Source of the DNA: an uncultured Chloroflexia bacterium | Lineage (GTDB): Bacteria > Chloroflexota > Anaerolineae > Anaerolineales > UBA4823 | Direction: 5' to 3' | Length of the DNA stretch: 64,000 bases | Assembly (NCBI GenBank): GCA_963709875.1 | Contig: CAVPYB010000012.1 | Coordinates: 545,154-609,153, forward strand | Part shown: positions 1 through 46,268 of the stretch, in pieces | Layout: every line of letters starts with the position of its first letter | Position numbering within the stretch: the first letter of the stretch is position 1 | The notes under the pieces: generated by a model | The model's input: the letters and a program-made list of their open reading frames with translations, nothing else | Told to the model about the DNA's origin: nothing | Databases searched by the model: none | Made by a program: the position numbers and the translations under genes

Positions 1-12
1 ATCCAGTATTAT

Positions 13-1246
13 TCAGCCGGCACTCTCTACCCCCTCCACGACGACGGGCCTCTCCTTCACCCGCAGCATGAAGGCGCCTGCCAGGAGCATGAACAGGGCT
101 GAAAAGAAGAACATGATCCGGTAGCTGCCGCCGCTGAGGTCGATCAGCACGCCGACCAGCTGCGGGCCGGCAATGGCGGCCAGGCTGGAGGCAAAATAAT
201 ACAGGCCAGTATAAGCGCCGATGCGGGCGTCGCCGCCGACATCGTAGACCATCGGCAGTGAGTTGACATTGATCAGCGCCCAGAAGAAACCCGCCGGCAG
301 CAGCAGGACGACCAGCATGAGCTGGCTGCTGACCAGCAGCCCGTAAACGAACAGCCCCGCCAGCCCGGCAACCCCGATCAGGATGATGCGCCGCTTCCCA
401 TAGCGGGTTGCCAGCAGCCCGGACGGCACCGCAAAGATCACGAACATCAGCGCCAGCCCGGAGGTCAGGATCGCTATACGCCCCTCGTCGATCCCCAGCG
501 AGAACTTGCCGAAGGATGAGATCCAGGTCTCCAGCGCGTTGTAGCCCATGAACCAGCATAGGATCGCCAGCAGGATCATCAAGCCCGACCGGTCGGCAGA
601 CCTGAACACTTCCCGCAGGTTGGCGGCAAAGCCGGCTCCCCCTTCGCCCTTATCCTCCTCCGGCGGCAGCTCTGGCTCGCGCATGAACAGCAGCACTACC
701 GTGATGGCGATCAGCATTACCACGCTTCCGAACAGGAAGGGGGTGATGCGCCCCATGCTGTACAGCGCCCCGCCGATCAGGAAGGCGGCGATTGCGCCCA
801 GACCACCCATCAGGTTGATCACCCCATTGGCGGTGCTGCGCTGGCTGGACGGGAACAGGTCGCCCAGCAGGGCGATGGTCGGGCGCGCGGAACAATGCCA
901 TCGACAGGTTGGTGAGCAGGATGGCGATCATCACCCCCAGCGGCGAACGCGCCGCCGGGACCAGGATGAAGAAGACCGCTGCCAGCGGCGCGCCGACCAG
1001 CATCCACGGCTTGCGCCGCCCGATGCGCGTTCGGGTGCGGTCCGAGCGCTCGCCCACCACCGGTTGCACGAACAGGTTCAGGTAGTTGTCCCAGGTCATG
1101 ATGAAGCCGATCACCGTGGCGGAGAGGGCGAAATCCTCCCGCAGGAAGATGGGCACGAAGTTGTTGAAGATCGGCCAGATCAGGCTGATGCCGAAGAAGC
1201 CGAACCCGAGCACGAAGGTCTTGCGGTAAGGAAAGCGACTTTTCAT
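13..1246 (-). pseudogene. MFS transporter (GPH/SLC45-like), split by one +1 frameshift as assembled
   Basis: ORFs 650..1246 (N-terminal TM helices, GERSDRTRTRIGRRKPW loop) and 13..822 (C-terminal half) are halves of one MFS protein. Shifting +1 at ~878-884 (coding strand gcgcccGacc) joins ...ALFRAP to TIALLGDLFPSSQRSTANGVINLMGG. Confidence 0.75.
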
Positions 1247-1300
1247 TCCGTTGCTCCTATATTCACCACAGAGTTCATGGAGTCAGGAAACAAGCTGTAT

Positions 1301-1337
1301 GTCATCCCGAGGGAGCGCTCTTTGCGATCGAGGGATC
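1301..1337. repeat. REP-like intergenic element (gtcatcccgagggagcg...gcgatcgagggatc)
   Basis: Same gtcatYSCGAG-type motif recurs at 13926 and 41430. It lies between the MFS and trmD genes. Confidence 0.4.
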
Positions 1338-1380
1338 CCCGAGACCTGTTCTTTTTCTGTGTTCTCTGCGCTCTCCGTGG

Positions 1381-2109
1381 TTAATCTTGGCCGTTATTGT
1401 CGAGGAACCGGCGCTCGTTGTCGCTCAGCTCCGCCTTCTCCAGCAGGTCGGGGCGGCGCTGCAGGGTGCGCAGCAGCGACTGTTCGCGCCGCCAGCGGGC
1501 GATGCGCGCGTGGTCGCCGGAGAGCAGCACATCCGGCACGCGCCAGCCGCGGAACTCTGGCGGGCGGGTGTAGTGCGGGTACTCCAACACCCCGGAGGCG
1601 TGTGAGTCGTCCCAGGCGCCGTCCGGGTCGCCCAGCGCGCCGGGGATCAGGCGCGCCACCGCGTCCACCAGCACCAGCGCGGGCAGCTCCCCACCGGTCA
1701 GCACGTAGTCGCCGATCGAGATTTCGTCCGACACCAGGTGCTCTCTAACCCGCTCGTCGATGCCTTCATAGCGCCCACACAGCAAAGCCAGGCGCGGCTG
1801 ACCCACCAGCTCCTGGGCTACTTTCTGCATGAAGGGGCGTCCCTGCGGGGTGAGCAGGATCACCGGGCAAGCCGGCGGCGCGCCAAGCACGCCTTCCACC
1901 GCGGCGAAGACCGGCTCGGGTTTCATCACCATCCCCCCGCCCCCGCCGTACGGCTCATCATCGGTCACGTGGTGCTTATCATGGGTCCAATCGCGGATAT
2001 TGTGCAGCTGCACCTCCAGCAGCCCACGCTGCTGGGCGCGCTGCAGGATGCTGGCTTGCAGGTAGGGTTCGAACACTTCCGGGAAGAGGGTGAATACGTC
2101 GAAGCGCAT
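1381..2109 (-). CDS. trmD: tRNA (guanine37-N1)-methyltransferase
   Basis: 242-aa ORF with hallmark TrmD N-terminus [13 protein letters not shown]..., YGGGGGMVM loop and C-terminal [17 protein letters not shown]. Confidence 0.95.
1808..2109. repeat. Direct repeat copy A (trmD 5' ~300 nt)
   Basis: Manual alignment to 10192..10493 gives about 21 mismatches in ~300 nt. An ~85-nt block is identical in both copies. Confidence 0.9.
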
Positions 2110-2161
2110 GGGAGTATTCTAGCTGATTAATGGGCGGAAGTACAAGAGAGAGGGGGAGGAT

Positions 2162-2195
2162 TTAGGAATTGCGAATTAGGAATTGCGAGTTAGGG
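2162..2195. repeat. Tandem 14-mer ttaggaattgcgaR (2.4 copies) upstream of trmD
   Basis: ttaggaattgcgaa / ttaggaattgcgag / ttaggg read directly. Confidence 0.6.
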
Positions 2196-2219
2196 CAGCA
2201 CAGTGGCTCTTGACAGGTG

Positions 2220-2266
2220 GATAAACTCTGATAAACTGTAATTATATTACGTTATGTACGTTATGT
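2220..2266 (+). promoter_or_regulatory. Candidate operator repeats upstream of the Phd/PIN operon
   Basis: gataaact at 2220 and 2230. acgttatgt repeated in tandem at 2249 and 2258. A ttgaca hexamer sits at 2211. Confidence 0.35.
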
Positions 2267-2302
2267 GCGCTCTGTACAGACTATTGTGAAAGTGAGGTAC
2301 AA

Positions 2303-2584
2303 GTGGAGAGAGAGCTGAATGTCACAAAAGCCAGGGAAAAGTTCAGCGACTTGGTGGAAGGTGTCCAATTTCAAGGTGACGCCTACATCATCAGCCGTCA
2401 TGGCAAGCCTGCTGCAGCCATCGTGCCGATCGAGGTGTACGAAAGCTGGAAAAGGGAGCGAGCCGCATTCTTCGACTTGATCCGGACTGCTCAGGGTGCT
2501 GCCGACCTGGACCCCGAGACCGCCAACCTCCTGGCGTCTGAAGCTGCCATGGCTGCTCGCTCCGGAGATCGAAGCACCCGGTGA
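2303..2584 (+). CDS. Type II antitoxin, Phd/YefM family
   Basis: 93 aa with LNVTKAREKFSDLVEGV...YIISRHGKPAAAIVPIEVYESW, typical of Phd/YefM. GTG start with gtgagg RBS. The stop overlaps the toxin start (GTGA). Confidence 0.85.
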   Translation: MERELNVTKAREKFSDLVEGVQFQGDAYIISRHGKPAAAIVPIEVYESWKRERAAFFDLIRTAQGAADLDPETANLLASEAAMAARSGDRSTR

Positions 2585-3004
2585 TCGTGGTCCTGGATAC
2601 AAACGTGCTGGTCAGCGCACTGCTGTCAGCTTCCGGACCGCCAGCCGAGATCATCCGCCGCTGGGAAGGGGGTGATTTTGAAGTTATCGTCTCACCACGG
2701 ATGCTGGCTGAACTGGACAGGGCGCTGGGCTACCCTCAGGTATCAAAGAATCTCAGACACACCCCGGAGCAGCGCAATGCTTTCATCCGCAGCTACGCGG
2801 CGGCTGCCACCCTGGTCGAGCCGCAGACAGATCTTGACGTCATTCAGGACGACCCGGGGGATAACAAGATACTGGAATGCGCAGTAGAGGGCGAGCGCGG
2901 ATTACATCGTCAGCGGAGACCGGCACCTGCTCGACCTGAAGGAATACCGGGGCATCGCGATCCTGCCGCCGACCGGTTTTCTTACCCTTCTGAATTTGGG
3001 GTAG
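2581..3004 (+). pseudogene. PIN-domain toxin, one +1 frameshift as assembled
   Basis: The N-terminus MIVVLDTNVLVSALLS...DPGDNKILECAVE is in frame. After ~2889 the conserved ASADYIVSGDRHLLDLKEYRGIAIL continues in the +1 frame to the stop at 3002..3004. Confidence 0.8.
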
Positions 3005-3766
3005 AGGGATGGGGTGCACCGCTCCATCCTGGAAGCCTGCCATGCCGGGACGGACACCCCTCTCCTGGGATCGGGAGAGACGAAACTTTTTTCGCGGGGG
3101 TGAGAGCGACCCGCACATACGGCTGAACTACCCGGTGGACGATCATCTATGAGAGCATACACACACGTACTTCGGTTAGGGTTGGCAATGATCGTGCTGT
3201 TTGCCAGCAGTTGTCACAGATCAACCATTATTCCGACACCAGCAAATACGACTCCTGCAAATACTTTAGCAGCACCTACCGCGAGCCAGTTTGTTAGCAG
3301 CGTTACGCCAAACAAGGTAGTCACATCTGCTCCAACATCGACAAAAGAGGCTGCTCCGATACCCGTTCCCTCACCGACCGATCGCGAAGTTCCTACTCTA
3401 TCTGTCGAACATGCCCGCGTCAGGTTAGTCGAGCTACTGGCAAATAATGGGGGTTGCCAGTTGCCGTGTTTTTGGGGAATTACACCGGGTGAAACCACAG
3501 CTCAGCAAGCGAGGAATATTCTTGCACCCCTGAGCAGTCTGTCGGATTACAATGCCTTTCATCCAAAATCTGGAAAAATCCTAAATTACGGATTGAAAGA
3601 AAACCAAATGTTGGATGTATTTATTAGTTACCTGGAAGATCAATACAATGTTTATGGTGTTTCTTTTGAGGCGCGAGACTTGATAAAGCTAGTGGCTCGT
3701 CATTGATGGATTGACGAGTCGATAAAAGTAGAATAAGCTATCTCCATAGAAACCGGAGGTAGCAAA

Positions 3767-4893
3767 GTGAACAAGAAATACATCGTAGATTTAACAACTG
3801 AAGAACGAGCTGATTTAGAAAGTCGCTTGCGGGGGGGCGAAATGGGAGTGCGCAAAGTAAAGCGCATCCAGATTTTGCTCAAAGCAGATGAAGGCTGGAG
3901 CGATGAACGCATAGGGGCAGCCATTGATGTTGGTTTATCGACGGTAGAACGGACCCGGCGCAAGTTTGTAGAACGCGGCCTAGAAGGAGCGATTACAAAT
4001 CGTCGCCCGCGACGGAAGTATCCTCGCAAACTGGATGGTCGGGCAGAAGCCCAATTGGTCGCGCTGGTATGCGGCCCGGTGCCAGATGGATATGCACGTT
4101 GGAGCTTGCGACTACTGGCCGACGAGTTGGTGAAAATCGAAGGGATCGAGATAGAGACCATTTCGCATGAAACGGTGCGCTTGGCGCTCAAAAAAACGAG
4201 CTTAAGCCTTGGCGCAAAGAACAATGGGTAATTCCACCAGCACAAAGTGCTGAGTTTGTCTATCGAATGGAAGATGTATTGGATATTTATCATTTGCCGT
4301 ATGGTCCAGACTACCCAGTTGTCTGTTTTGATGAAAGCAACAAGCAATTGGTGGCCGAAAAACGCATACCAGTGCCTGCAGAACCCGGTCAGCTAGAACG
4401 GTACGATTATGAATATCAACGCAACGGTGTCCGCAATCTCTTCATGTTCTTTTCGCCACTAGTTGCTTGGCGGCATGTCAAAGTGACCAAGCAGCGCACA
4501 CATTTTGAATGGGCTTATTGCGTGAAAGACTTGGTCGACGTTCATTTTCCAGAAGCGATCCGGATTATCCTGATTCAGGATAATCTCAACACGCATAACC
4601 CGGCTTTTCTGTACGAAGTCTTTGAGCCTGCAGAAGCCAAACGTATCCTTAATAAACTTGAGTTCCATTTCACTCCAAAGCATGGTAGTTGGCTCAACGT
4701 GGCTGAAATCGAATTTAGTGTCTTGGCTCGGCAATGTCTTGACCGTCGTATCGGTGACGAAGTAGCTCTTATTCATGAAATTGCAACTTGGGAAGAAAAA
4801 CGCAACCATACCCAAGCTACGGTCAATTGGCAGTTCACAACTGATGATGCACGGATCAAACTCAAGAAACTATACCCGTCTATCGAAGGTTGA
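3767..4893 (+). CDS. IS630-family DDE transposase, two frames joined by a -1 shift at A7
   Basis: ORF 3767..4231 carries the HTH domains and ORF 4267..4893 the DDE domain. Slipping -1 on a aaa aaa c gives continuous ...ALKKNELKPWRKEQWVIPPAQSAEFVYRMEDVLDIY. Confidence 0.85.
4190..4196 (+). other. A7 slippery run, putative programmed -1 frameshift site of the IS630 transposase
   Basis: ctc aaa aaa acg lies exactly where the two transposase frames overlap. Confidence 0.6.
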
Positions 4894-5445
4894 CGTAACA
4901 CTAGTTGATCAACAAAGTGGAGGATATGCTTTTCAAGATGTCTTTGACTCACCTGACTTTGGAGAAAAGCTGGATTTCTACATGCTTCACCAGGTCCTCG
5001 ACGCCCATGGCCACCCCGGTTCGGTATTGCTTACGACCTGGGGCAAAATTCCTTCGCCAAGATATGAGCAAGGGAATTTCAAACTCATCCTTCTTTATCC
5101 AGAGCAAGGGATTGTGGTGCAATACACCACTGAGATGCGTGTCGATGGTAACAATATAGTAGGCTGCCTGGATAATGCCCATATTGAGATGGATTTATTG
5201 CCACCAGGCGATGCCGATACATTCTTTGAACAGTTAACACCAACAGATTGGCAAAACCGGATTGCTTATTACAAGCCGCTAGAAGAAGTTACATCTATGA
5301 GTATAGATGATTTTTACGAGACATTTCGTCAACCGACAGGCGAATGCCTCATAACGCCTGCAGACCTGTGGCCGATTCCTGAATATTGAGTCTGTATGTG
5401 CGGCTGAATGCTACGAAACCGATCACTCGCTCCCACCCATTCTAT

Positions 5446-5480
5446 CCCTCCCTCTCCCGGATGTTTCGGGAGAGGGAGGG
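5446..5480. repeat. REP-like perfect hairpin (14-bp stem), possible terminator
   Basis: ccctccctctcccg-gatgttt-cgggagagggaggg lies 57 nt after the lipoprotein stop. No T-tract follows. Confidence 0.5.
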
Positions 5481-5622
5481 CGCGCGTATCAAATGCGCCG
5501 GGAATGTAAATCGGCGCGATAATAGATGCACGGAACCAGGTTATGCCAGAGAAACAGAGCTACAACCAGACCAAACAGCAGCATCCGCTCTATTCACCAT
5601 CTTTGATCGACTTCATATCTCA

Positions 5623-5919
5623 ATGATTGTTACCACTCCCCAGTATAATAAGAGTCTGGCTAATTTAGAACTTACACAGTTGAGGAGAGGATTGGGGTGT
5701 ATCGAATCCCCAACAAGAATACGCCTTACAATCCCTATCGGGGCAGTTGCCGGAACTGTCTGCGGCACTATTACTGGATTTGGAGTAATTCTATTCCTGA
5801 CAGGGGATAATTTTAACCTCTCCGTTCTACTTGGAGGTTTCACAGGGACGATAATTTTTCCGATCTCAATTTTGGGTGGGTTACTCATCGGGGTAGTTTA
5901 TTCAATATTACATAATTGA
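5623..5919 (+). CDS. Hypothetical small membrane protein
   Basis: The C-terminal two-thirds is hydrophobic and Gly-rich (IPIGAVAGTVCGTITGFGVILFL...ILGGLLIGVVYSIL). The start is uncertain and I recognise no homology. Confidence 0.3.
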   Translation: MIVTTPQYNKSLANLELTQLRRGLGCIESPTRIRLTIPIGAVAGTVCGTITGFGVILFLTGDNFNLSVLLGGFTGTIIFPISILGGLLIGVVYSILHN

Positions 5920-6099
5920 CGGCTTCAATATCGATCATCATGATGAAAATCGATAATTCACGCCAATCTCGGCATCACGACCGCCCAACATCCGCTGCAG
6001 TGGACTTGGCTGCGCCGCGATTTGCAGGAGGTGAAGCTATTTTGCTATCGTGGAAGGCAGGAGATGGGATGAGCCTAGGCGCCTCAGCTCGAGGCCGTT

Positions 6100-6777
6100 G
6101 TGCAGCAGAAACAGGTAAAGATTAAGATGTTGAAGAAATGGGTTTCTTGGATTGGAATTCTTGTTATTCTTGGTAGCGAATTCTTGATTCGAAATGTTTT
6201 TCTTCCTACGAACGCGAATGAAACCCATGTTAGATATGCGATGATCATGGAATGGTTGATTCTTTTCCTGTTACTTTCACTATGGATACCCAAAGTTGAG
6301 AAGAAATCATTAGAAAGCATCGGTTTCGGAACATTCAAATGGCGTCACTTATGGATGGGGCTTTTAGTATTCGTACTTGCTACAGCAGCACTCATCATAA
6401 GTGGTATGGTGTTAGAAGCGAATGGCCTTGAGCCAATCAGGTCACTTCAGCCAGTACTCAATAATTACAGTTTCTCCACGCTATTTGGATTATTCCTAAC
6501 AGGGACCATCCTCGAGGAGATTTTTTACAGAGGCTATCTCATAGAAAGATTGACTGATTTGTTGGGTCGTCGATGGCTGGCAGGGTTTGTTTCGTGGATA
6601 GCATTCACATTGGCACATCTCAAGTTTTTTGGGATAGGGCCTACAATAGACATTAGTATATTGTCAGCAGCCCTTGTCTTGCTCTATCTAAAGGAAAGGA
6701 GTATTTGGCCGTGTATTGTGGCTCATGGAACAAACAATCTGCTGAGCTATTTGGTTTTTCCTATGCTGATACGATGA
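6100..6777 (+). CDS. CPBP-family intramembrane glutamic endopeptidase (CAAX protease/Abi-like)
   Basis: Motifs EEIFYRGYL, FTLAHL and HGTNN within a multi-TM protein. Confidence 0.85.
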   Translation: MQQKQVKIKMLKKWVSWIGILVILGSEFLIRNVFLPTNANETHVRYAMIMEWLILFLLLSLWIPKVEKKSLESIGFGTFKWRHLWMGLLVFVLATAALIISGMVLEANGLEPIRSLQPVLNNYSFSTLFGLFLTGTILEEIFYRGYLIERLTDLLGRRWLAGFVSWIAFTLAHLKFFGIGPTIDISILSAALVLLYLKERSIWPCIVAHGTNNLLSYLVFPMLIR

Positions 6778-8384
6778 TGAAGAGCTTCATTCATAAAACG
6801 AATAGGTCCATAACTTCAATAGTTTTCCTGGTTGTTTTCCTGTGTTCCAGCTTTGTTTTTCAAATCTATCCAACAAAAGCTGAAGACCCACACACTGAAA
6901 CGGTCTGGGTGTTAACTGAAACGCTAGTTAATCCCAACGGTGGACAGTTAGAGTTTTATGGGGGAGGGGCCACACCAGGCTGGTTTGGAGAAGCGCGCTT
7001 TGAAGGGACATTCGTGAAGTATGGCGTTTCGGAAACCAGCTTCCGGATAGATGATCGCTTTGTGGATCATGAATATGAGCACCACAATGTGACCATAGAG
7101 ACTTTTTTTGAGAAGCCGCCTCTGCAGATGACGTCTGGGGAAACGGTCGAGTTGAGCTATGGTTTTTCCCACAGCGGCATGGCGGAGGATGGAGGAACCA
7201 GAGTGCAGTTCTGGTATGACAGCGAAGATGTTGATATCCAACCAGAAACAGTGTTTGCATACGCACCCTGGGCTGACAATTTTGACGGCATAGCCACTGG
7301 CGAGTACAGCTTCAAAGTTCCTCCTGCAGCCAGTGGGAGTGAGATTGAGATCTATGCCAGCTGGTGGAACGCAGAACCTTGCCTGGTGATCTGGAAATAC
7401 CAGGCAAAAGAAGTGAACGGAACTTCCATCGATGATTCTGCGGCTAATGATCTTGTTCGGGAAGATGTGGCTAAAGGCAGGGAGCTTGGGGATGCAGAAT
7501 GCGCCAGATTACAGCAAGAGGTAGCCGATAAGGTTGGAAATGCCAGGGGGGCCAATGAATCCTATTTAGAGCTTGGTATCATCGGCGTAGTTGTAGGCCA
7601 GTATGGAGATACAATCCACGATTATTGTTCAGGGGGGGAAGGCCCTTTGCTGAGAGGCGGCTTGATAAAAATGGGGGATTGTATCAGAACTGGGCCAAAT
7701 GGGCGCTTGAGAATCCAAATGAATGACCGAGACGATAGAAGAAACGCTGGGCCCTCTGTGCTTAATATCGGAGCAAACAGCGAAGCATGTTTTGATAAGT
7801 TTTTCGTCAATTTTGATGATCCCCCAGAACAGGAAACAATACTTAGTGTTATTCAAGGGGCGATTCGGGTTATCTTCAAAGGTTGGAGAGGAAAATCAAG
7901 TTTTAAAGTTAGAGCAGGTGTTTCAATATGTGGTATTCGCGGCTCAGAGGTTCTCATTGCCTACGTCCCCGAATACAATGACTCTGATATGGATGTCGTA
8001 ACGGCACAGGTACTCGAAGGTCACATGGATGTCACATCAGGAATAGGCGAGACAGTCAGCTTGTACGATAACCAACAAGTGATAATCTATGGTGAGAAAA
8101 TGACCGATGTTCGATCCTTGGATCAAGAAAAATGGGACTCACATCTGGAATTTTACGGCGTGAGCGATGCAAGTTTCCCAGATGTAGAAATCGAAGAATG
8201 GGAGATAATTGCCGAAGATGTACCCGAAGATGGAAACGGTGAAGAAGAGATTACAATAGCGCAGGAAACACTCCCTCCCCTGGCTGGCTATATTTGCATT
8301 CTGGGCAGTGTTCTAATTTGCGGAGCAGCTATTGTCGCAATGCTCACCTTTGTTTACTTTGCTCGCAAGCGATCTGAACAGTGA
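6774..8384 (+). CDS. Secreted, C-terminally anchored FecR-domain protein
   Basis: The ATG overlaps the CPBP stop (ATGA). Signal peptide, FecR-like beta region (GDCIRTGPNGRLRIQM...IRGSEVLIAY...VLEGHMDV), acidic linker and a C-terminal TM helix followed by RKRSEQ. Confidence 0.65.
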   Translation: MMKSFIHKTNRSITSIVFLVVFLCSSFVFQIYPTKAEDPHTETVWVLTETLVNPNGGQLEFYGGGATPGWFGEARFEGTFVKYGVSETSFRIDDRFVDHEYEHHNVTIETFFEKPPLQMTSGETVELSYGFSHSGMAEDGGTRVQFWYDSEDVDIQPETVFAYAPWADNFDGIATGEYSFKVPPAASGSEIEIYASWWNAEPCLVIWKYQAKEVNGTSIDDSAANDLVREDVAKGRELGDAECARLQQEVADKVGNARGANESYLELGIIGVVVGQYGDTIHDYCSGGEGPLLRGGLIKMGDCIRTGPNGRLRIQMNDRDDRRNAGPSVLNIGANSEACFDKFFVNFDDPPEQETILSVIQGAIRVIFKGWRGKSSFKVRAGVSICGIRGSEVLIAYVPEYNDSDMDVVTAQVLEGHMDVTSGIGETVSLYDNQQVIIYGEKMTDVRSLDQEKWDSHLEFYGVSDASFPDVEIEEWEIIAEDVPEDGNGEEEITIAQETLPPLAGYICILGSVLICGAAIVAMLTFVYFARKRSEQ

Positions 8385-8385
8385 C

Positions 8386-9899
8386 CTGTAGTTTCGCCAA
8401 AGTTGGCGATAGGACCTTAAAAACCGCCACCAAAGACGGCAAATGAACGGGCTAGAAGAATGGCAAAGCAGGAAGGCTGGCTTTGGACCTTCCGAGTGTC
8501 ATCTGCGAAAGACCGGTGTCAGACAACTGCCCAGGGCGATGCCGTAAAAACATCCTGCAAGCAGGTCTCAATTTGTTGCGGCTGAGCAAAGGGATGTAGG
8601 ACCAAACGCAACAAGGATTGAAAGTGCTCGAGACGATGTTGGCGAATAAAGTCTGCCAGGGAAGCCTTGGAAGGGTTGTGGCTGTAGGCCAGCGCCAGGC
8701 GATATTGCAGGTAGTTGAGGGCCAGCATGACCACGGCGAACCATTTCTGAGTGGCTTCAAAGGATTGCAGCCGGAAATCGCCCAGTCCCAGGGCATTTTT
8801 CAAGTAAGTGTTATCAACCTCCACCGGCCAGCGCTTCTGGTAATATCTCAAGACTTGCTGCACTGACAAGGATAGATCAGTACAGACGAAGTACTTGGGG
8901 AATTTATCCCCGGGGCGTTTTTTGGAGATGATTGCGTGGACAGGTTCTGCAAAGCCTTCCAGATGTCCCTGGACGAGACGTGTGAAGTAGGTGGGTGGTT
9001 TGTGCAGTTGGTCCACGGCCTCGAGCGTGATCCGCTGATAAGGCTTGTGCCTGAGCGCCAGGTTGTGTTGGTCAACACGTACTTTGTCAATCCGCCGGTT
9101 CGACTTGATGGCACAGATGACCTGCCACTTCTGCCGCCGACAATATCGGATCAGTTTTTTGGAAGCGTACCAGGAGTCAAAAAGCACATAGACTTTGTGT
9201 CCTTTGGGCAAGAGCGTCTCTAACTCCACCAGCATCTGGCGGGCGAGGGCATACTTGCTGCGATAATGCAAACGTTTGTCAGCCGGTCGCTTCCGATTGA
9301 GATGGCGCACGGTCTTTTCGCGCAAGAACGGACGCGTGTCGAACAGAAAACCGAACGGCCCAATTTGCACATGCACTTCGACGTACACATAACCGTTGGT
9401 GTAAGCCTGCTTTTTCTTGCTGCTCTCGCTGTGATTGTGATGATAATCCACCGCTTCCAGATGCCGAGTGGCTTTGCCTTTCTTGCCCAGACTATCATCA
9501 ATGCCGATAAATATCTCGAAGGCAACGTTCAGCTTTCGGGCCAGTTCCAGAAATTTCACCACCATCCAGCGTTTGCGCGGCTCACTGATATCTTCTGGCT
9601 CCCAAGGGCTTTCACGCAGAAAGTCCGCCCCGCTTTTCGGGTCGGGCTGGCCTTTCAACAGACGATAGAGCCCACTGATGGTCTTGGTCTCGTTGCTGGT
9701 TAGCAGCGCATCCACCATCTGGATCAAGTGCCGTATTTGTGGTTGGTAAAGTGCCATGTTCAGAGCGTTAATAAATGCGACAAGTTCTTTAGAGTGTTGT
9801 ACAATTGCTGTGAGCATTGGTTTCCTCTGGTATCTGGATTTGTAGACAACTTATCCTACCAGATTTTCCAGTGCTCATTCTATTTTGGCGAAACTAAAG
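8386..9899 (-). mobile_element. IS4/IS701-like insertion sequence (~1.5 kb)
   Basis: 16-bp terminal inverted repeats matching 15/16 (ctgtagtttcgccaaa versus the reverse complement ctttagtttcgccaaa). Flanked by the 7-bp direct repeat cagtgac at 8379..8385 and 9900..9906. Confidence 0.8.
8519..9817 (-). CDS. DDE transposase, IS4/IS701-like
   Basis: 432 aa with GIDDS, VLFDSWY and YQKRWPVEVDNTYLKNALGL (YxxRxxxE) motifs. Confidence 0.85.
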   Translation of the reverse strand: MLTAIVQHSKELVAFINALNMALYQPQIRHLIQMVDALLTSNETKTISGLYRLLKGQPDPKSGADFLRESPWEPEDISEPRKRWMVVKFLELARKLNVAFEIFIGIDDSLGKKGKATRHLEAVDYHHNHSESSKKKQAYTNGYVYVEVHVQIGPFGFLFDTRPFLREKTVRHLNRKRPADKRLHYRSKYALARQMLVELETLLPKGHKVYVLFDSWYASKKLIRYCRRQKWQVICAIKSNRRIDKVRVDQHNLALRHKPYQRITLEAVDQLHKPPTYFTRLVQGHLEGFAEPVHAIISKKRPGDKFPKYFVCTDLSLSVQQVLRYYQKRWPVEVDNTYLKNALGLGDFRLQSFEATQKWFAVVMLALNYLQYRLALAYSHNPSKASLADFIRQHRLEHFQSLLRLVLHPFAQPQQIETCLQDVFTASPWAVV

Positions 9900-10184
9900 C
9901 AGTGACTATAAGAAATCGATGGTTGGAAGGATAAAAAATGCCAGCTAACCCCACATACACTTGACCGTGCTGCGCACGAGGGTAAGCGCCGCGTTTTCCA
10001 AGCATTTGGCTCTGGGTCAAGCAAATTTCGAAGCCGAAACGCACGGCAAATGATGTAACCGTTAGGCAGCCAAGCCCTTGCTTAAGGGTCTTCTGGAGAA
10101 TTCAAATGGCACTTGCTGGGAAACCTAAAACATGGCTGGCACTTGTGTGTCTAGGGACACTTGGACTGCTTTTAGCCAACCGTG

Positions 10185-10493
10185 TTACCAAAGTTCCTGG
10201 GCTACTTTTTGCGTGAAGGGGCGTCCCTGCGGGGTGAGCAGGATCACCGGGCAAGCCGGCGGCGCGCCAAGCACGCCTTCCACCGCGGCGAAGACCAACT
10301 CGGGCTTCATCACCATCCCCCCGCCGTCGCCGTACGGCTCATCATCTGTCACGTGGTGCTTATCATGGGTCCAATCGCGGATATTGTGCAGCTGCACCTC
10401 CAGCAGCCCGCGCTGCTGGGCGCGCTGCAGGATGCTGGTTTGCACGTAAGGTTCGAAAACTTCGGGGAAGAGAGTAAAGATGTCGAATATCAT
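10185..10493 (-). pseudogene. Truncated second copy of the trmD 5' end (first ~101 codons)
   Basis: [47 protein letters not shown]... differs from trmD at 7 of 101 residues. It carries G->D in the GGGGGM loop and stops two codons after the homology ends. Confidence 0.9.
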
Positions 10494-10536
10494 GATCGTG
10501 AACGGATTAGGGCTTCTTGAGGAAATTGGCAGGTTT

Positions 10537-10983
10537 TTACTTGCCGAACATTTCATAGGGAGGCCATTGCACCCACAGCAACGTGACGAAGATGGTAATG
10601 TTGACCACCAGCGCAATGACCGTATCAATATTCGATAGCCTGCGGTTGGGTGCGCCAGGCCAGATGCCAGAGAAGAGAATGATCCCAGCGGTCGAGATGA
10701 TCGCCGAAAGAACAGCGTACTGCCGCCAGTCGCTCCCGGGAAGCAAAGCACCCCAGAAGGATAACGCAGCAATGACGAAGCCTATCGCCGACAGTAACCA
10801 GAAGAATCCGGCGACGATGGCGGCAGCCCTGGGCGAGAGCGATGGGATCAGCCAGGAGCGAACAGGCAGGACTGGCTTGGAGCCTCCAGCCTGCCGTGGG
10901 AGCGACAGGAATGCATTCCCATGGGCGAGCCCGTGAAGGAAAAGCACTGCAGTGATGATGAATTTGATGGTTTGAGGGGACAT
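10537..10983 (-). CDS. Hypothetical 4-TM membrane protein
   Basis: 148-aa hydrophobic ORF with good coding appearance. I cannot name a family. Confidence 0.5.
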   Translation of the reverse strand: MSPQTIKFIITAVLFLHGLAHGNAFLSLPRQAGGSKPVLPVRSWLIPSLSPRAAAIVAGFFWLLSAIGFVIAALSFWGALLPGSDWRQYAVLSAIISTAGIILFSGIWPGAPNRRLSNIDTVIALVVNITIFVTLLWVQWPPYEMFGK

Positions 10984-11189
10984 AACCTGATTATACAGGT
11001 GAATCGCAAAGGGGGTGGATTAAGCGAGGAGGAAATTCTAAACGCTATCCAAACCGTCATCGGCACCTGACGCATAGCACCTCGCATCCGACACCTGCAA
11101 CTCACTCTTGGTATCTGGTACTTGACTCCCCGCACTTCGCACTAAGCTTAACCCCAGCTTAGCATCCGCCCCGCCAGACCCCATTCTGC

Positions 11190-11219
11190 TTGACTCGCAA
11201 TCCCTTGGGATGGTAATAT
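11190..11219 (+). promoter_or_regulatory. Candidate sigma70-type promoter of the TPR gene pair
   Basis: ttgact, 18-nt spacer, taatat, ending 10 nt before the ATG at 11229. Confidence 0.45.
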
Positions 11220-11228
11220 GCTCTTAAC

Positions 11229-12479
11229 ATGTACTTAAGAGGCAACCGTTGGAACATGAACACCCGGCGCAAGCGGCGCTCCAGCCCGTGGCGGATCATC
11301 CTGCTCGTGGCGCTTATCGGGGTGTTCTTATACTTAAATCAGGTTGTGGTGCCAGCCACCCCGCCGCTGTTCATCCCCACGCCGACCCCCACCCGCAGCC
11401 CGGAGGCCTACGTCAACGAGGCCGACCAGTTCTACCGGGAGGGCAAGCTGGCTCAGGCCATCCAGGCTTACCAGGAAGGCATCCTGGTCGACCCGGACAA
11501 CCCTGCCATCTACGTCACCCTGGCGCGCCTGCAGGTCTTCGCCGGAGAATACCAGGCTGCCATCGAGAACACCCAGAACGCCCTGCTGGTCAACCCCAAT
11601 AACCCGCTGGCGCACGCTGTCCAGGGCTGGGCGTGGAGCTTCCTGGGGGACCATCTGCAGGCTGAAGCGGCTGTGAAGAAAGCGCTGGAGCTCGACCCGA
11701 ACAACGCCCTGGCGCACGCCTTTTACGCCGAGATCCTGATCAACAAGGGAGATTTCGGCGACCTGGATAAAGCCATCGCAGCCTCCAAGACCGCCCGCGA
11801 TCTGGACCCCAGCCTGCTGGAAACGCACCGCGCCCGCGGCCTGGTGCTGGTCAACACGCAGAACGTGGAAGAAGCTATCAACGAGCTGAAAGCCGCCATC
11901 ACCATAAACGATAAGATCGCCGACCTGCACCTCAACCTGGGCTTCGCCTACCGCGTGCAGGGCGAGAACGATCTGGCGGTCGAAGAGCTTCTGACCGCAT
12001 TTGCCCTCAATCCCAATTCGCCTATCGCCCCCACCGAGATCTCGCTGGCTTACGCCAACGAAGGCCAGTTCGGCAAAGCGGTGCAGTACGCCGAGCAGGC
12101 GACCAAAGTCGAGCCTGAAAACCCGCGCCTGCACGGCAACCTGGGCGTGATGTACTACCGCAACCAGGAACTGGATAAAGCCATTCCCGAGCTGGCGATG
12201 GTGGTGCATGGCGGCACAGCCGATGATGGCACGGCGGTCGAAGGCCTGCCGCTGGATTACAGCACCGTGGCGCAGTACTACTGGTTCTACGGCTTCGCCC
12301 TGGCCAAGAACGGTCGCTGTACAGAGGCGGTGCCCGTCTTCCAGGCACTGCTCAGCGGCGTGCCGGATTACGAGCTGGCAGTGGAGAACGCCCAGGCCGG
12401 CATCCAGCTCTGCCAGGAAAGCCTGACCACCTCCACACCCACCCCCGAAGGCGAAGCAGAAGTCACCCCCACCCCGTAG
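11229..12479 (+). CDS. Membrane-anchored TPR-repeat protein
   Basis: Basic N-terminus, one TM helix, PTPTPT linker, then repeated TPR consensus (A..Y..AL.L.P.N..A). Confidence 0.8.
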   Translation: MYLRGNRWNMNTRRKRRSSPWRIILLVALIGVFLYLNQVVVPATPPLFIPTPTPTRSPEAYVNEADQFYREGKLAQAIQAYQEGILVDPDNPAIYVTLARLQVFAGEYQAAIENTQNALLVNPNNPLAHAVQGWAWSFLGDHLQAEAAVKKALELDPNNALAHAFYAEILINKGDFGDLDKAIAASKTARDLDPSLLETHRARGLVLVNTQNVEEAINELKAAITINDKIADLHLNLGFAYRVQGENDLAVEELLTAFALNPNSPIAPTEISLAYANEGQFGKAVQYAEQATKVEPENPRLHGNLGVMYYRNQELDKAIPELAMVVHGGTADDGTAVEGLPLDYSTVAQYYWFYGFALAKNGRCTEAVPVFQALLSGVPDYELAVENAQAGIQLCQESLTTSTPTPEGEAEVTPTP

Positions 12480-12485
12480 CAGCCC

Positions 12486-13904
12486 ATGGATCGCGATATC
12501 GTCGGCAAGCGCCCTCACTACCGCCCGGCAAAAGCCAGGGCAAATCCCTACCGCATCATGCTGTGGATCAGCCTGATTCTACTTGGCATCTGGCTGCTGA
12601 TGGGCATCCAACGCGGCCAGGTGGAGCCGCTCTTCGAGCCAACCCCCACCCCTACCCGCACCGCCGGGTCTTACATCCAGGAAGCGCAGGCCTATTTCCA
12701 GGCCGGGAAGCTGGATGACCCCGATGCTCCACAGCCGGCGCCCCTCAGACCCGACGCAATCGATACCTACCAACGCGCCCTGGATATGGATCCCAGCGAC
12801 GCGCACGCTTGGGCGGAGAAAGCCCGTATCCAGACCTACTCGATCACCATGCTCAGCAACGACGCCGACCGGCTGGAGCGGCTGGAACAGGCACTGGAGT
12901 CGATCGACAAGGCGGTCGAGCTGAATCCCGACGACAGCGATATCCATGCCATCCGCGCTTTCGTATTGGATTGGTACGCCTCCAGCCCGCTTATCTCGGA
13001 CGAACGCCGCCAGGAGCTGCTGCTGGAAGCCGAGAGTGAGGCGGTGCGCGCCTATGGTCTGGACCCTGAGAACGGGCTGGCGCTGGCCTTCTACGCCGAA
13101 GTTCTGCTCGACCAGCAGAAGTGGTCGCAGGCCGAGCAGAACGCCGCCAAAGCGATCTCCATCGCACCCAACTCGATGGATGCCCACCGCGTCTACGCCA
13201 CCGTGCTCGAGTCGCTCGGGCAGTACCGCAGCGCCATAGAGCAGTACCTCAAAGCCGCCGAGATCAGCCCCAACCTGACCTTCCTATACGTGTACGTGGG
13301 CCGCAACTACCTCAGCCTGCGCCTGTACGATCGTGCCCTGGAGTACTACGCCAGAGCAGCGGAGATCAATAAGCAGCTCGGGGTGAAAAATCCGATCCCC
13401 AACCTGGAGATCGCCAAGACCTACTCTCAGCAGGGCGAATTCTTCATCGCCTCCCGCAACGCCGAGACTGCTCTGGGGTTCGACCCGACCAATGCCAATA
13501 CATACGGGCAGCTGGGCATCATTTATATCCGCTCGCGCAACTATGAGGGCGCCCAGCCGATGCTGAAATGCGCCGTGCGCGGCTGCACGGCTGAGGAGAA
13601 CGAGGTCGGGGAATCGCCCGTCGAGGGGTTAGATCTCACCAACCTGACCGTGGCATACTACTACGTAGAGTACGGCACAGTGCTGGCGTTCTTGAGCCGC
13701 CCGAACCAGAACTTCTGCCCTGAGGCCCGCCAGGTGCTGAGCGAAGTCCGGGCCGCCTATCCGGACGATGAGATCTTGATGAGCATCGTCGCCGACAGCG
13801 AGGGCATATGCACCCGGCTGGATAGCGGCAGCGCACCGGAAGAAGCCCCCACCTCCACCCCGGATAGGATGATGGAGGCAACCCCGGTACCTTCCAGCCC
13901 GTAG
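12486..13904 (+). CDS. Membrane-anchored TPR-repeat protein (paralogue of the preceding gene)
   Basis: Same architecture: TM helix, EPTPTPTRT linker, TPR repeats, Pro/Thr-rich tail. Confidence 0.8.
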   Translation: MDRDIVGKRPHYRPAKARANPYRIMLWISLILLGIWLLMGIQRGQVEPLFEPTPTPTRTAGSYIQEAQAYFQAGKLDDPDAPQPAPLRPDAIDTYQRALDMDPSDAHAWAEKARIQTYSITMLSNDADRLERLEQALESIDKAVELNPDDSDIHAIRAFVLDWYASSPLISDERRQELLLEAESEAVRAYGLDPENGLALAFYAEVLLDQQKWSQAEQNAAKAISIAPNSMDAHRVYATVLESLGQYRSAIEQYLKAAEISPNLTFLYVYVGRNYLSLRLYDRALEYYARAAEINKQLGVKNPIPNLEIAKTYSQQGEFFIASRNAETALGFDPTNANTYGQLGIIYIRSRNYEGAQPMLKCAVRGCTAEENEVGESPVEGLDLTNLTVAYYYVEYGTVLAFLSRPNQNFCPEARQVLSEVRAAYPDDEILMSIVADSEGICTRLDSGSAPEEAPTSTPDRMMEATPVPSSP

Positions 13905-13925
13905 ACCCGCAACGATGACCGTTAC

Positions 13926-14019
13926 GTCATTGCGAACCCGGCTCACTTTGCTGGGTGAAGCAATCCTCTGACTGCACATTAGATTGCTTCAAGCCCAAAG
14001 AGCAGGCTTTCGCAATGAC
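13926..14019. repeat. REP/MITE-like nested inverted repeat
   Basis: Outer arms gtcattgcgaa / ttcgcaatgac (13926 and 14009). Inner arms gaagcaatc / gattgcttc (13957 and 13982). Confidence 0.5.
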
Positions 14020-14108
14020 TTCCAAGCGCCGCGTGGAAGCTCGGCTGGCGCAGCTTTTTCCAATGTGAGGGCGAATGTCAGAAATTTGTTAAAATTTGCC
14101 ATTCCCTC

Positions 14109-14137
14109 TTGACTTTCATTATAAAATTAGGTATGAT
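14109..14137 (+). promoter_or_regulatory. groESL promoter
   Basis: ttgact, 17-nt spacer, tatgat, immediately upstream of the CIRCE element. Confidence 0.6.
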
Positions 14138-14148
14138 TCAGGCGCTAG

Positions 14149-14175
14149 TTAGCACTCTCTTTGTTTGAGTGCTAA
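14149..14175 (+). promoter_or_regulatory. CIRCE operator (HrcA binding site)
   Basis: Perfect match to TTAGCACTC-N9-GAGTGCTAA. The palindrome extends to 14144..14180. Confidence 0.9.
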
Positions 14176-14224
14176 CTAGCCTGCATGTGGAAATCCAAAA
14201 TATCATCTTTTTCAGGAGGTACGT

Positions 14225-14521
14225 ATGTCGATTAACTTAAAACCCTTGGGAAGCCGCGTGGTGGTTGAGCCTGTGGAGCAGGAAGAGATCACCGCAGGTG
14301 GCATTGTGCTGCCAGAGACCGCCAAGGAAAAACCGCAAAAAGGGACCATCCTGGCAACAGGCCCTGGCGACCGTGATGACGACGGGAAGCGCATCCCGAT
14401 GGATATTGCGGTAGGCGACATGGTTTTGTATGCCAAGTATGCCGGCACCGAAATCAAGGTCGAAGGCAAAAAACTGCTGATTCTGAAAGAAAGCGACATT
14501 CTGGCAATCGTCGAAAACTAA
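14225..14521 (+). CDS. groES: Co-chaperonin GroES
   Basis: 98 aa: [17 protein letters not shown]...[16 protein letters not shown]. Confidence 0.95.
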
Positions 14522-14550
14522 TTTTGAAATAAACATAAAGGAGTACATCT

Positions 14551-16182
14551 ATGGCAGCCAAACAACTGGTATTTTCTGAGGAAGCACGCCGCCGACTGCA
14601 GCGCGGCATGGACATTCTGGCATCCGCGGTGGTGACCACGCTCGGTCCGAAAGGCCGCAACGTTGCAATAGACCGCAAGTTCGGTTCCCCCACCATCACC
14701 CACGACGGCGTGACAGTCGCAAAAGAGATCGAACTGGAAGACCCATTCGAGAACATGGGCGCCCAGCTTCTCAAAGAAGCCGCTACCAAGACCAACGACA
14801 TCGCCGGTGACGGCACCACCACTTCTACCGTCCTGGCGCACTCGATCGTCTCCGAGGGCATGAAGAACCTTGCCGCCGGTGCCAACCCCATGCTGCTCAA
14901 GCGCGGCATCGAGGCAGCCACCAAGGCAGTCACCGATGAGATCAAAGCCCAGGCGATTGAGATCACTACCAAAGAAGAAATCGCAAACGTAGCATCCATC
15001 TCCGCTCAGGACCGCATCATCGGTGAGCTGATCGCCGAAGTCATGGACAAAGTCGGTAAAGACGGCGTCATCACTGTGGAAGAGTCCAAGGGTCTGGAGT
15101 TCGAGACCGAGTATGTCGAGGGTATGCAGTTCGACCGCGGTTACATCTCACCCTACTTCATCACCGACCCCGAGCACATGGAAGCCAACATCGAAGAACC
15201 ATACGTGCTCATTCATGACAAGAAGATCTCCGCCGCAACCGATATCGTCCCCATCCTGGAGAAACTGGTCCAGGTCGGCAAGCGCGAGCTGGTGATCATC
15301 GCCGAGGATATCGATGGTGAGGCACTGGCGACCCTGGTGCTCAACAAGCTGCGCGGCATGCTCAACGTGCTGGCAGTCAAAGCGCCCGGATTCGGCGACC
15401 GCCGTAAAGCCATGCTGCAGGATATCGCAGTGCTGACCGGTGCAGAAGTGATTTCTGAAGAGACCGGTCGCAAGCTCGAGTCCGTCGTGCTCAGCGACCT
15501 GGGCCGCGCCGAGAAGATCGTCTCCACCAAGGATGACACCACCGTCATCGGCGGCAAAGGCGAGACGGCGCAGATCAAAGGCCGTATCGAGCAGATCCGC
15601 ATCGAGATCGACAAGAGCACCAGCGATTACGACCGCGAGAAGCTCCAGGAGCGCCTGGCCAAGCTTTCCGGCGGCGTCGCCATCATCCGTGTTGGCGCAG
15701 CCACCGAGACCGAGCTGAAAGAGAAGAAGCACCGTGTAGAAGATGCTCTCTCCGCCACACGTGCCGCAGTCGAAGAGGGGATCGTCCCCGGTGGTGGCGT
15801 TGCATTGATCAATGCCATGGGCGCACTGGATGGCATTAAGATGGATCACGAAGACGCCCAGATCGGCGTCAATATCGTGCGCAAATCCCTGGAAGTTCCG
15901 CTACGCAAGATCGCAGAGAACGCCGGCAAGGACGGCTCCGTGATCCTGGAGAACGTGCGCCGCGCTCAGAAAGAGAAGAAGAACAAGAAGCTCGGCTTCA
16001 ATGTCATCTCCGAGGCATACCTGGATATGGTTAAAGACGGCGTGATCGACCCCGCCAAGGTTACCCGCGGCGCTCTGGAGAACGCCACTTCCATCGCAGC
16101 TATGATCCTGACCACCGAGGCCCTGATCACCGAGCTACCCGAGAAGGACAAGCCGGCTCCCCCGCCGATGCCGGATTATTAG
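14551..16182 (+). CDS. groEL: Chaperonin GroEL
   Basis: 543 aa: [18 protein letters not shown]...[12 protein letters not shown]... Confidence 0.97.
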
Positions 16183-16248
16183 AATCGGCAGCTTCGTAGA
16201 TAGGGAGCTGCTATCCCCTAACTGCGTGAGCACGAGAATGATGCAAAA

Positions 16249-16280
16249 GCGAGGCACAGTGCGTCTGTGCCTCGCTTTTT
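16249..16280 (+). terminator. Intrinsic terminator after groEL
   Basis: gcgaggcacag-tgcgt-ctgtgcctcgc followed by ttttt. Confidence 0.8.
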
Positions 16281-16312
16281 ATTGTCCCGTCCGGTCTATT
16301 ACGGCAGCTTTA

Positions 16313-16819
16313 TCAATTTCCGCCTATAAAATCCTCCAAGAGCATCACTGCGAACTTGTCCCGCAGCCGCTCGAAGTGCCGGTCATTTGTTATGAACAAA
16401 TCGGCACCACCGAGCTGGCAGGCGGCGAGTTGTAGCGCGTCTGGAGGGCGGATATGAAATTCTGCACGCAGCCGTGCTGCCTGGCGGATAACGTCCCGGT
16501 CAAGGTCTATGATCATCAGGTTTGGGAAATTAACCAGCAGCGTTTCGTATTTCCTGGCAATATAATCCTTGTCTAACGAGAATGGCCTGACGATAATCTC
16601 CATCAAACTGATCGTCGAGGTTACTCCAACTCTTTCTCCCGCCTCAATACCCATGAGCACAGCGGTAGTCAGCGGGAGGTAGGTTGGATGCTCTTCGAAG
16701 TGATAGATGAAGATTGCAGTATCTAATCCGACTGTCGAAGATGTTCTCAGTCGTTTTGAGAGTCGGTCCACGCGCTGCGTTCCTGATTGATATATTCCTG
16801 GGCAATCAATCCATCCCAT
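16313..16819 (-). CDS. PIN-domain toxin (VapC-like)
   Basis: GLDTAIFIY..., SLMEI, DALQLAAC and ITNDRHF supply the acidic PIN residues. The coordinates give the maximal ORF. The true start may be the CTG at 16750 that overlaps the antitoxin stop. Confidence 0.8.
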   Translation of the reverse strand: MGWIDCPGIYQSGTQRVDRLSKRLRTSSTVGLDTAIFIYHFEEHPTYLPLTTAVLMGIEAGERVGVTSTISLMEIIVRPFSLDKDYIARKYETLLVNFPNLMIIDLDRDVIRQAARLRAEFHIRPPDALQLAACQLGGADLFITNDRHFERLRDKFAVMLLEDFIGGN

Positions 16820-17004
16820 ATCTCTTTGTGCAGACCGGACAAAACCTGAGTGTAATTCTCTGGCTCTGGTACCAAGACCAGGATACCATCCTGGCTGTCC
16901 ACCAGCAAGCGGTCTCCGCTGTTGATATTCAGAAGATGGCGTGCGGCCGCAGGCACCGAGATCTGGTAGCGCTTGCTGACCTTTACAGATGACACAATAG
17001 CCAT
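16747..17004 (-). CDS. AbrB/MazE(SpoVT)-family antitoxin
   Basis: MAIVSSVKVSKRYQISVPAAARHLLNINSGDRLLV. GGAGG RBS upstream of the ATG at 17004. Confidence 0.75.
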   Translation of the reverse strand: MAIVSSVKVSKRYQISVPAAARHLLNINSGDRLLVDSQDGILVLVPEPENYTQVLSGLHKEIWDGLIAQEYINQERSAWTDSQND

Positions 17005-17110
17005 AAATTCCTCCGACTTGCTAAGCAAATAACAGAATTTGCTTAGCATTATAACATCCCTGAATGATTTGGGGAAGGGAATTTAGAGACACAGCTCGAT
17101 GCTCAAAACT

Positions 17111-17139
17111 TTGACAAAATATCCCTTCCGTGCTAAAAT
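17111..17139 (+). promoter_or_regulatory. Near-consensus sigma70 promoter
   Basis: ttgaca, 17-nt spacer, taaaat. Confidence 0.6.
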
Positions 17140-17145
17140 CCGCTC

Positions 17146-17416
17146 TGGTCAGTAAGAATAACTGTGGTGGATATATAGCACTGAGAGATTGAACGGCCAG
17201 CGAACCGGCCCGACTGCGTTACCGTGAACCCAAGCCATTTATGGGAGTTAATATACCCAAAAAAGTGTGTGGAAATTCGATTATGTAACTGCGTGCCCCG
17301 GCCTGTATGAACTTGTCGGGGCATTTTGATTAAGGATTAGACGTTACGCAGCAGGTGGGAAGGTTATACCCTCCCTCGAACTGCGTAACATCAGTATAGA
17401 TTATAGAAGGAAGATT
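17146..17416 (+). promoter_or_regulatory. Structured leader or small RNA upstream of rnj (function unknown)
   Basis: ~270 nt between the promoter and the rnj ATG. It contains a 15-codon mini-ORF (17241..17288), a terminator hairpin (17294..17327) and a second hairpin gttacgcag...ctgcgtaac (17343..17389). Confidence 0.35.
17294..17327 (+). terminator. Intrinsic terminator/attenuator inside the rnj leader
   Basis: tgccccg-16 nt-cggggca followed by tttt. Confidence 0.55.
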
Positions 17417-19060: not shown

Positions 19061-19075
19061 ACCTTTAGCATATCA

Positions 19076-19115
19076 ACTGGGCTGCTATTCTGCGACGCAG
19101 GATAGCAGCCCAGTT
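19076..19115. terminator. Bidirectional hairpin terminator between convergent rnj and pcm
   Basis: gggctgctattctg-cgacg-caggatagcagccc (14-bp stem with one G-U pair), with complementary flanking bases. Confidence 0.7.
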
Positions 19116-19117
19116 AT

Positions 19118-19783: not shown

Positions 19784-19792
19784 GCTCTTCTT

Positions 19793-45627: not shown

Positions 45628-45663
45628 TAGCACCTGATGCAGTAGAGGCTAGGAATAACATCT

Positions 45664-46171: not shown

Positions 46172-46268
46172 AATGCCGAGTCGTGATTAGGTGATTGGCT
46201 GATCGTGAGCCAGATGTCAGGAGCTTCATCAGAGATATGAACATCCCGCCAGAGAGAGTGAGGCACAG

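Follow-up and report, generated by a model that had tools for sequence, protein, structure and literature searches.

A partial trmD copy beside low-GC DNA in an Anaerolineales bacterium, probably left when alternative versions of a strain-variable locus recombined

Campbell-type integration is the single-crossover entry of a non-replicating circle, while homology-facilitated illegitimate recombination takes place during natural transformation, where de Vries and Wackernagel reportedly described it in 2002. SXT/R391 elements in prfC are known to behave like the dusA-specific islands and prophages. The latter insert into the 5′ part of a housekeeping gene whose 5′ end they replace (Farrugia et al., 2015, PMC4482086), possess a dedicated tyrosine integrase and a 21-bp semiconserved attachment (att) site and are found in hundreds of genomes (PMC4482086). 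The locus described here lies in a stretch of 64,000 nt (the window) from an uncultured Chloroflexia bacterium (GenBank assembly GCA_963709875.1, contig CAVPYB010000012.1, positions 545,154 to 609,153), in which a complete trmD gene and a second copy of only its 5′ part stand on either side of low-GC accessory DNA. The nearest TrmD proteins were those of Anaerolineales (Chloroflexota). Close relatives carry alternative versions of the spacer between trmD and a TPR-protein gene (TPR1), and it is probable that one homologous and one illegitimate recombination joined two variants of this strain-variable locus, type A and a type C that already carried the cargo. The product looks like a one-off outcome of ordinary recombination, not a new kind of mobile element.

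The two trmD copies constitute the sole repeat of more than 90% identity and more than 30 nt within the window. The complete gene (1381..2109, minus strand) encodes 242 amino acids with an MRFDVF-type start and matches the Pfam family tRNA_m1G_MT (E = 1e-64), while the fragment, trmD′ (10185..10493, minus strand), comprises 101 codons with an MIFDIF-type start and ends at the junction 10191/10192. The direct repeat spans 300 nt, being the first 300 nt of the complete gene (1808..2107, minus strand) and 10192-10491, the copies being 93% identical and 8.4 kb apart. The full copy, the fragment and the trmD genes of relatives were compared over alignment columns 1-302, numbered from the trmD 5′ end. 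The two window copies match at 280 of these positions and differ at 22, with the mismatches clustered at the 5′ end (12 of the 22 in the first 55 nt; binomial p = 1.4e-4) and the sequences upstream of the two start codons unrelated. At the other end the homology stops abruptly at 1808/10192, with 3 mismatches in the adjoining 22 nt, the fragment terminating as ...QELW* just beyond it and the junction at 10191/10192 being abrupt and non-homologous. The fragment also carries G56D and P65L, changes at positions that are invariant in relatives. The initial annotation had read from the letters a complete and a 5′-only copy in direct orientation, about 93% identity, mismatches crowded near the start codon, a sharp end of homology and relic features in the fragment (G56D and the early stop, to which P65L is now added), all of which the alignment bears out; its count of about 21 mismatches becomes 22 over the 302 positions, and its identical block of about 85 nt measures 83 nt. 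Identical runs of 83 nt (the longest) and 62 nt lie inside the repeat. The 83-nt block was considered as an att core and ruled out, being statistically unremarkable once the 5′ mismatch cluster is set aside (p = 0.09) and set back from the boundary.

The setting of trmD in this clade was established from about 35 species-level relatives in a genome collection, in which gaps and synteny were compared. In these close relatives trmD lies outside its usual rpsP-rimM-trmD-rplS operon, alone and divergent from the TPR genes, in the ancestral order TPR2 <- TPR1 / trmD -> MFS -> hrcA-grpE-dnaK-dnaJ-prmA. The gap between TPR1 and the trmD start is 63-458 nt in 33 of 35 of them (1,278 nt in L014), indicating that the hot spot is confined to the small clade described here. 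Within that clade, type A consists of TPR1, a predicted membrane protein gene (memb), 43 nt and trmD with the MIFDIF start (L081, L087 and L091, and partly L092, in which the memb 3′ end is present). In type B neither filling is found, with about 260 nt and a promoter between TPR1 and a trmD with the MRFDVF start (L082-L084), while in type C TPR1 is followed by about 230 nt of RHS/YD-repeat relic, PIN, Phd, the promoter and trmD with the MRFDVF start (L094 and L095). The type-C promoter is the ancestral promoter. As these loci indicate, the TPR-trmD spacer is a strain-variable locus with alternative fillings in this Anaerolineales clade. The spacer of L094 from PIN to the TPR1 upstream region (about 10745-10960) encodes a peptide, ...LLSDHLDSTAITADAGGNKVAELRYKAW..., which was judged by eye to be RHS/YD-repeat-like and would be the relic of another cassette at the locus.

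The exchange of these versions is seen most directly between L081 (type A) and L094 (type C), which are 99.36% identical over 9,781 nt from trmD codon 3 while the cassettes upstream of trmD are wholly different, memb in the one and the RHS relic with PIN-Phd in the other. This degree of identity shows types A and C to be alleles segregating within one species, with the exchange boundary inside the first codons of trmD. The breakpoints vary, falling in columns 18-51 between L081 and L094, near column 40 between the window fragment and type A, and near column 110 between L087 and L091, and such variable positions in the 5′ part of trmD point to homologous and not site-specific recombination. The memb gene (10537..10983, minus strand, 148 aa), which marks the type-A version, occurs as an intact open reading frame (ORF) in the corresponding position of L081, L087 and L091, and its cassette is 96-99% identical across lineages whose flanks are 87-92% identical, which suggests that it spread recently by homologous recombination. 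The empty site that the initial annotation had foreseen, with the gene at 10537..10983 directly upstream of an uninterrupted trmD, exists in these same three loci.

The window contains both versions. Type A is represented by its segment 11240-10453, from the region upstream of TPR1 through memb to the fragment's first 40 nt, whereas 13-3050 is collinear with L094 at an even 82-92% identity (MFS gene 89%, trmD 87-89%, spacer 83%, Phd 86.5%, PIN 81.5%), with collinearity resuming at 11047. L094 and the short contig L095, which comes from a second data set, each have a single intact trmD in the order MFS-trmD-spacer-Phd-PIN and no island. The window thus runs from a type-A version that breaks off after trmD codon 101 through 7.1 kb of cargo into a complete type-C version, and the two versions occur separately in close relatives, type A in L081, L087 and L091 and type C in L094 and L095. 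From this collinearity the complete trmD, its promoter, the divergent spacer and the toxin-antitoxin pair all stand in their native chromosomal type-C context.

The toxin-antitoxin pair consists of a Phd/YefM antitoxin gene (2303..2584, plus strand; PF02604, E = 2e-13) and a PIN_3 toxin gene (2581..3003, plus strand; PF13470, E = 9e-19), whose ORFs overlap by 4 nt, the adjacency and overlap fitting a type II system of Phd/YefM with a PIN toxin. The Phd protein shares 86% aa identity with P0143, which adjoins trmD in L094. The toxin gene is frameshifted near 2885, its C-terminus ADYIVSGDRHLLDLKEY... being read in another frame, and appears intact in L094; homology to L094 extends about 45 nt beyond the PIN stop, to about 3050. 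Judged by these neighbours, the pair is a chromosomal companion of trmD in L094/L095 and not cargo, contrary to its earlier placement in the island. The limits of that supposed island of about 8 kb move accordingly, with the foreign part starting near 3051.

Within trmD itself, columns 1-40 of the complete gene are identical to L094 at 37 of 40 positions, and those of the fragment are identical to type-A relatives at 38-39 of 40. Over columns 41-302 the window copies agree at 95% of positions, roughly as different strains would be expected to, and either copy has 87-89% identity with close genus-level relatives, the fragment about 87% with every relative; the complete gene shows an even 87-89% identity to all relatives over its whole length with no visible breakpoint. 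Another account of these columns would be a duplication in place, whereby the trmD 5′ region was duplicated, the cargo was inserted later, the start of the upstream copy was replaced by a memb cassette and gene conversion kept columns 41-302 similar. In those columns the copies do have lineage-specific states in common, and each is the other's nearest match, the copy-specific changes being 7 unique to the fragment (including G56D and P65L) and 5 unique to the full copy. Such a history is nevertheless quite unlikely, since it needs more steps, no relative has two copies, and the junction of fragment and memb is the same as in type-A relatives (97-99%), which points to an imported or inherited type-A piece. 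The seven changes unique to the fragment fit pseudogene decay, and the fragment is a decaying pseudogene.

The recombination between type A and type C-plus-cargo that is favoured here is suggested by direct repeats that match a shared homologous segment, together with one junction, 10191/10192, that has no homology. It would need a single homologous exchange and, at 10191/10192, a single join without homology, the parents being type-A and type-C strains of the same species, of which the type-C strain already had the cargo. Two routes would fit, and neither would need a dedicated integrase. In the first, of Campbell type, a circularised type-C-plus-cargo fragment (cargo-PIN-Phd-promoter-trmD 1..302) would have entered the trmD of a type-A recipient by a single crossover, such that the trmD fragment would be the displaced original, and the topology would match that of the initial annotation. 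The second is homology-facilitated illegitimate recombination, in which a linear piece of type A (TPR1-memb-trmD 1..302) would have entered a type-C-plus-cargo recipient, its TPR1 side providing the anchor and its broken end being joined illegitimately, with the trmD fragment imported and dead on arrival. An informative-site comparison of the flanks gave no direction signal, since L087 and L094 are almost identical to each other with the window as the outlier. The fragment is not to be assumed the displaced original, as had been proposed, and might just as well be a stretch of type-A chromosome that was brought in. The converse view that the fragment was necessarily imported, for which memb looked recently transferred, was withdrawn, given that the TPR1-memb spacer of the window has its own indels and the number of events is equal for both directions. 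RecA recombination between the 300-nt repeats would delete the cargo and the toxin-antitoxin pair and regenerate a clean type-A locus.

Several observations weigh against this recombination account. The memb gene is 97-99% identical to that of another species and looks recently shared, while the toxin-antitoxin pair is only 82-86% identical to L094 and looks old, and this contrast implies that the two halves have different histories. The junction at 10191/10192 is without clear microhomology, and the 95% similarity of columns 41-302 could stem from gene conversion or from cross-talk in long-read polishing. The topology is also exactly that which a site-specific element would leave after losing its integrase. 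Finally, neither the protein index nor the genome set nor the metagenome scan yielded a conspecific contig, the last having been probed with a 27-nt trmD core and returned 5 contigs, none conspecific and none with the island junction; the parental type-A and type-C strains of the window species are for this reason ones that we infer and have not seen.

A more novel reading is that of a RecA-dependent mobile module without a recombinase of its own, in which an accessory block travels together with an essential gene's promoter and initial 100 codons. Such a module would loop out through the 300-nt repeats and re-enter related chromosomes by a single crossover in trmD, leaving the cell unharmed because trmD would be rebuilt each time, and the clean type-A loci of relatives could then be loop-out products. 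This reading is held to be improbable.

The initial annotation had favoured an integrative element and the corresponding hypothesis, of a degenerate site-specific island inserted at about codon 101 of trmD that brought a replacement 5′ end and promoter and later lost its integrase, is considered unlikely. It accounts for direct repeats that enclose a low-GC interval with insertion sequence (IS) and toxin-antitoxin genes, for the empty site in type-A relatives and for a functional copy with a different 5′ end and promoter, and it has a precedent in the dusA islands, which replace the 5′ end of the target gene (PMC4482086); gene 5′-end insertion with replacement of that end is already known from those islands. 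The functional copy does have the different 5′ end and the promoter of its own that had been noted, but the claim that an element brought them does not hold, as in L094/L095, where there is one intact trmD, this 5′ end and promoter belong to the chromosome, together with the complete spacer and Phd/PIN. The repeat extends over 300 nt and is not a short core, with three mismatches in the 22 nt at the boundary where an att core should be. No tyrosine or serine recombinase or relic of one was found by Pfam/NCBIfam profile searches of the main ORFs of at least 50 aa or by six-frame Pfam scans of the stretches without a family match (2105-2310, 3040-3770, 4880-6110 and 9890-10200; E ≤ 1), which extends the earlier remark that none was visible in the interval. 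A tRNA scan of 1-20000 found none, hence there is no tRNA-type att site, and no inverted repeat of at least 16 nt linking the island ends was found. Recurrence was surveyed in 80 related trmD loci with 10 kb on either side, none of which has a second trmD piece, and no trmD-linked insertion was seen in the other genomes compared. A scan of viral contigs with TrmD gave no match and the literature searches gave no account of integration into trmD, leaving no sign of the trmD-targeting family of elements that had been envisaged.

The cargo (3051..10191, plus strand) comprises about 7.1 kb of foreign low-GC DNA, as delimited by GC and tetranucleotide profiles and by Pfam/NCBIfam searches. GC content is 48.6% over 2160-10191 against 61.1 ± 4.2% elsewhere in the window, and the DNA lying between the two copies has a tetranucleotide distance of about 0.5 against 0.13-0.29 elsewhere; the compositional drop begins near 3.05-3.1 kb and not at 2.1 kb, the trmD start, so that the AT-rich interval of about 3.1-10.1 kb that had been judged by eye is confirmed by calculation. 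From the PIN side, the cargo begins with a putative exported protein gene without a family match (3149-3706 and about 4892-5389) that is apparently interrupted by an IS630-family element with transposase ORFs at 3767-4231 and 4267-4893. Convincing inverted repeats were not found at the ends of this element, and the lipoprotein gene split by IS630 of the initial annotation is plausible. There follow a hypothetical small membrane ORF (5386-5919), a CPBP protease gene (6100-6777) and a FecR-like gene with a weak FecR-domain match (about 6774-8384). An IS701/IS4-like element (8386-9899, minus strand), whose transposase matches IS701 best, adjoins the last gene and has 16-nt inverted repeats and a 7-bp target duplication, CAGTGAC, at 8379-8385 and 9900-9906, and 285 nt of non-coding DNA (9907-10191) complete the cargo. 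Of the contents listed in the initial annotation, the IS630 transposase, the CPBP protease and the weak FecR domain were recovered, as were the Phd and PIN_3 families although these are not cargo, and its IS4-like element is better likened to IS701. The intact CAGTGAC duplication marks that element, which adjoins the left end of the island, as a simple insertion that deleted no neighbour, arguing against IS-mediated loss of a neighbouring integrase gene. The interval was not recognised as a composite transposon or IS-bounded island, as the IS630-family and IS701-like elements each occur once, in its interior, with no second IS copy in the window.

No counterpart of the cargo was present at any related trmD locus compared. 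The FecR-like gene has 84.6% nucleotide identity (82% aa) to a gene in an unrelated accessory region of L090, the homology ending exactly at the IS boundary. The cargo is not a coherent element, this gene recurring there without the rest. The region of L090 that holds this closest homologue (ENA ERZ25039514 contig_41695, 1-21608) is of 48% GC and dense in BrnT/CopG, PIN and HigB/HTH toxin-antitoxin pairs, IS fragments and methyltransferases, having otherwise nothing in common with the window.

The MFS transporter gene (13..1246, minus strand; Pfam MFS_1/MFS_2) is the conserved downstream neighbour of trmD, and the TPR-protein gene (11229-12479) with its upstream region (together 11047..12479, plus strand) forms the conserved left flank common to all locus versions. 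Relative to L081 a 1-nt insertion near 885 splits the MFS gene into two overlapping ORFs; neither this frameshift nor that at about 2885 in PIN lies in a clean homopolymer, and on the sequence they may be real decay or long-read or assembly errors. They bear on a further possibility, that the contig is a chimera of a co-occurring type-A strain and a type-C-plus-cargo strain, as they hint at long-read assembly with residual errors and the halves of the window correspond to two strain variants seen in relatives. Such an artefact is very unlikely, because 10191/10192 joins dissimilar sequences, at which an overlap-based assembler has no reason to jump, and the fragment has unique substitutions of its own.

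The spacer between the divergent trmD and Phd genes (2110..2302) is 193 nt long and 83% identical to L094 over its whole length. On the trmD side it contains a -10 box, TAGAAT (2116-2121), 6 nt before the ATG, and a weak -35-like TTGTAC (2140-2145). The full copy thus has a -10 box, which the fragment lacks. On the other side is a Phd promoter, TTGACA-16-TAAACT (2210-2237, plus strand), which was flagged by a promoter scan that did not flag the trmD promoter. Between the two promoters TCGCAATTCCTAA occurs twice in tandem (about 2162-2188), an arrangement that is conserved in L094 and may be an operator for Phd/PIN autoregulation. In most of 27 Anaerolineales loci the trmD -10 box has the same spacing to the ATG, and in most Anaerolineales examined (L001-L020, L082-L094) trmD has no Shine-Dalgarno sequence but a TAGAAT, TACAAT or TAAAAT box 5-6 nt upstream of its start codon. 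A -10 box so close to the ATG is the layout of a leaderless mRNA and suggests leaderless expression, and its conservation across the order may interest those who study gene expression in Chloroflexota. A similar TGTATAAT box (TATAAT at 10990-10995) precedes the memb start codon by 6 nt.

Elsewhere in the window, low-GC patches of 46-52%, more than 2 standard deviations below the window mean, occur at 16251-17250, about 14001-15000 and 55751-57000. Diverged direct repeats of 63-91% identity, several of them about 5.26 kb apart, lie at 42506-50734 and are read as paralogous gene copies, with a CxxCxxCxxxCP iron-sulfur motif encoded in one repeat.

The wider importance of the locus is limited. 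It illustrates that low-GC DNA with a part-copy of an essential gene at its side need not mark an integrase-driven island and that the footprint can be the same when alternative versions of a strain-variable locus recombine, which calls for caution in the automated calling of islands and att sites. It also offers a small view of cassette exchange in Anaerolineales with breakpoints inside the first trmD codons.

Compared with described systems, the locus resembles the dusA islands in that an original 5′ end is left as a remnant while the new 5′ end of the working gene is on the island side, but differs in having no integrase, a 300-nt repeat, a single known case and a ‘new’ 5′ end that is the ordinary chromosomal sequence of a sister strain type. 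As in the strain-variable integration hot spots between core genes, alternative cassettes (memb, Phd-PIN, the RHS relic or nothing) occupy the space between the same two core genes and the exchange tracts end inside flanking genes, although here the hot spot belongs to a small clade and the boundary on one flank falls within the opening codons of an essential gene. The cases of Campbell-type integration and homology-facilitated illegitimate recombination are experimental and come from other bacteria, whereas here the process is read from its product alone. With those cases the locus shares one homologous anchor and one non-homologous join, direct repeats flanking the insert that are as long as the shared segment, no need for a recombinase encoded by the element, and reversibility through RecA.

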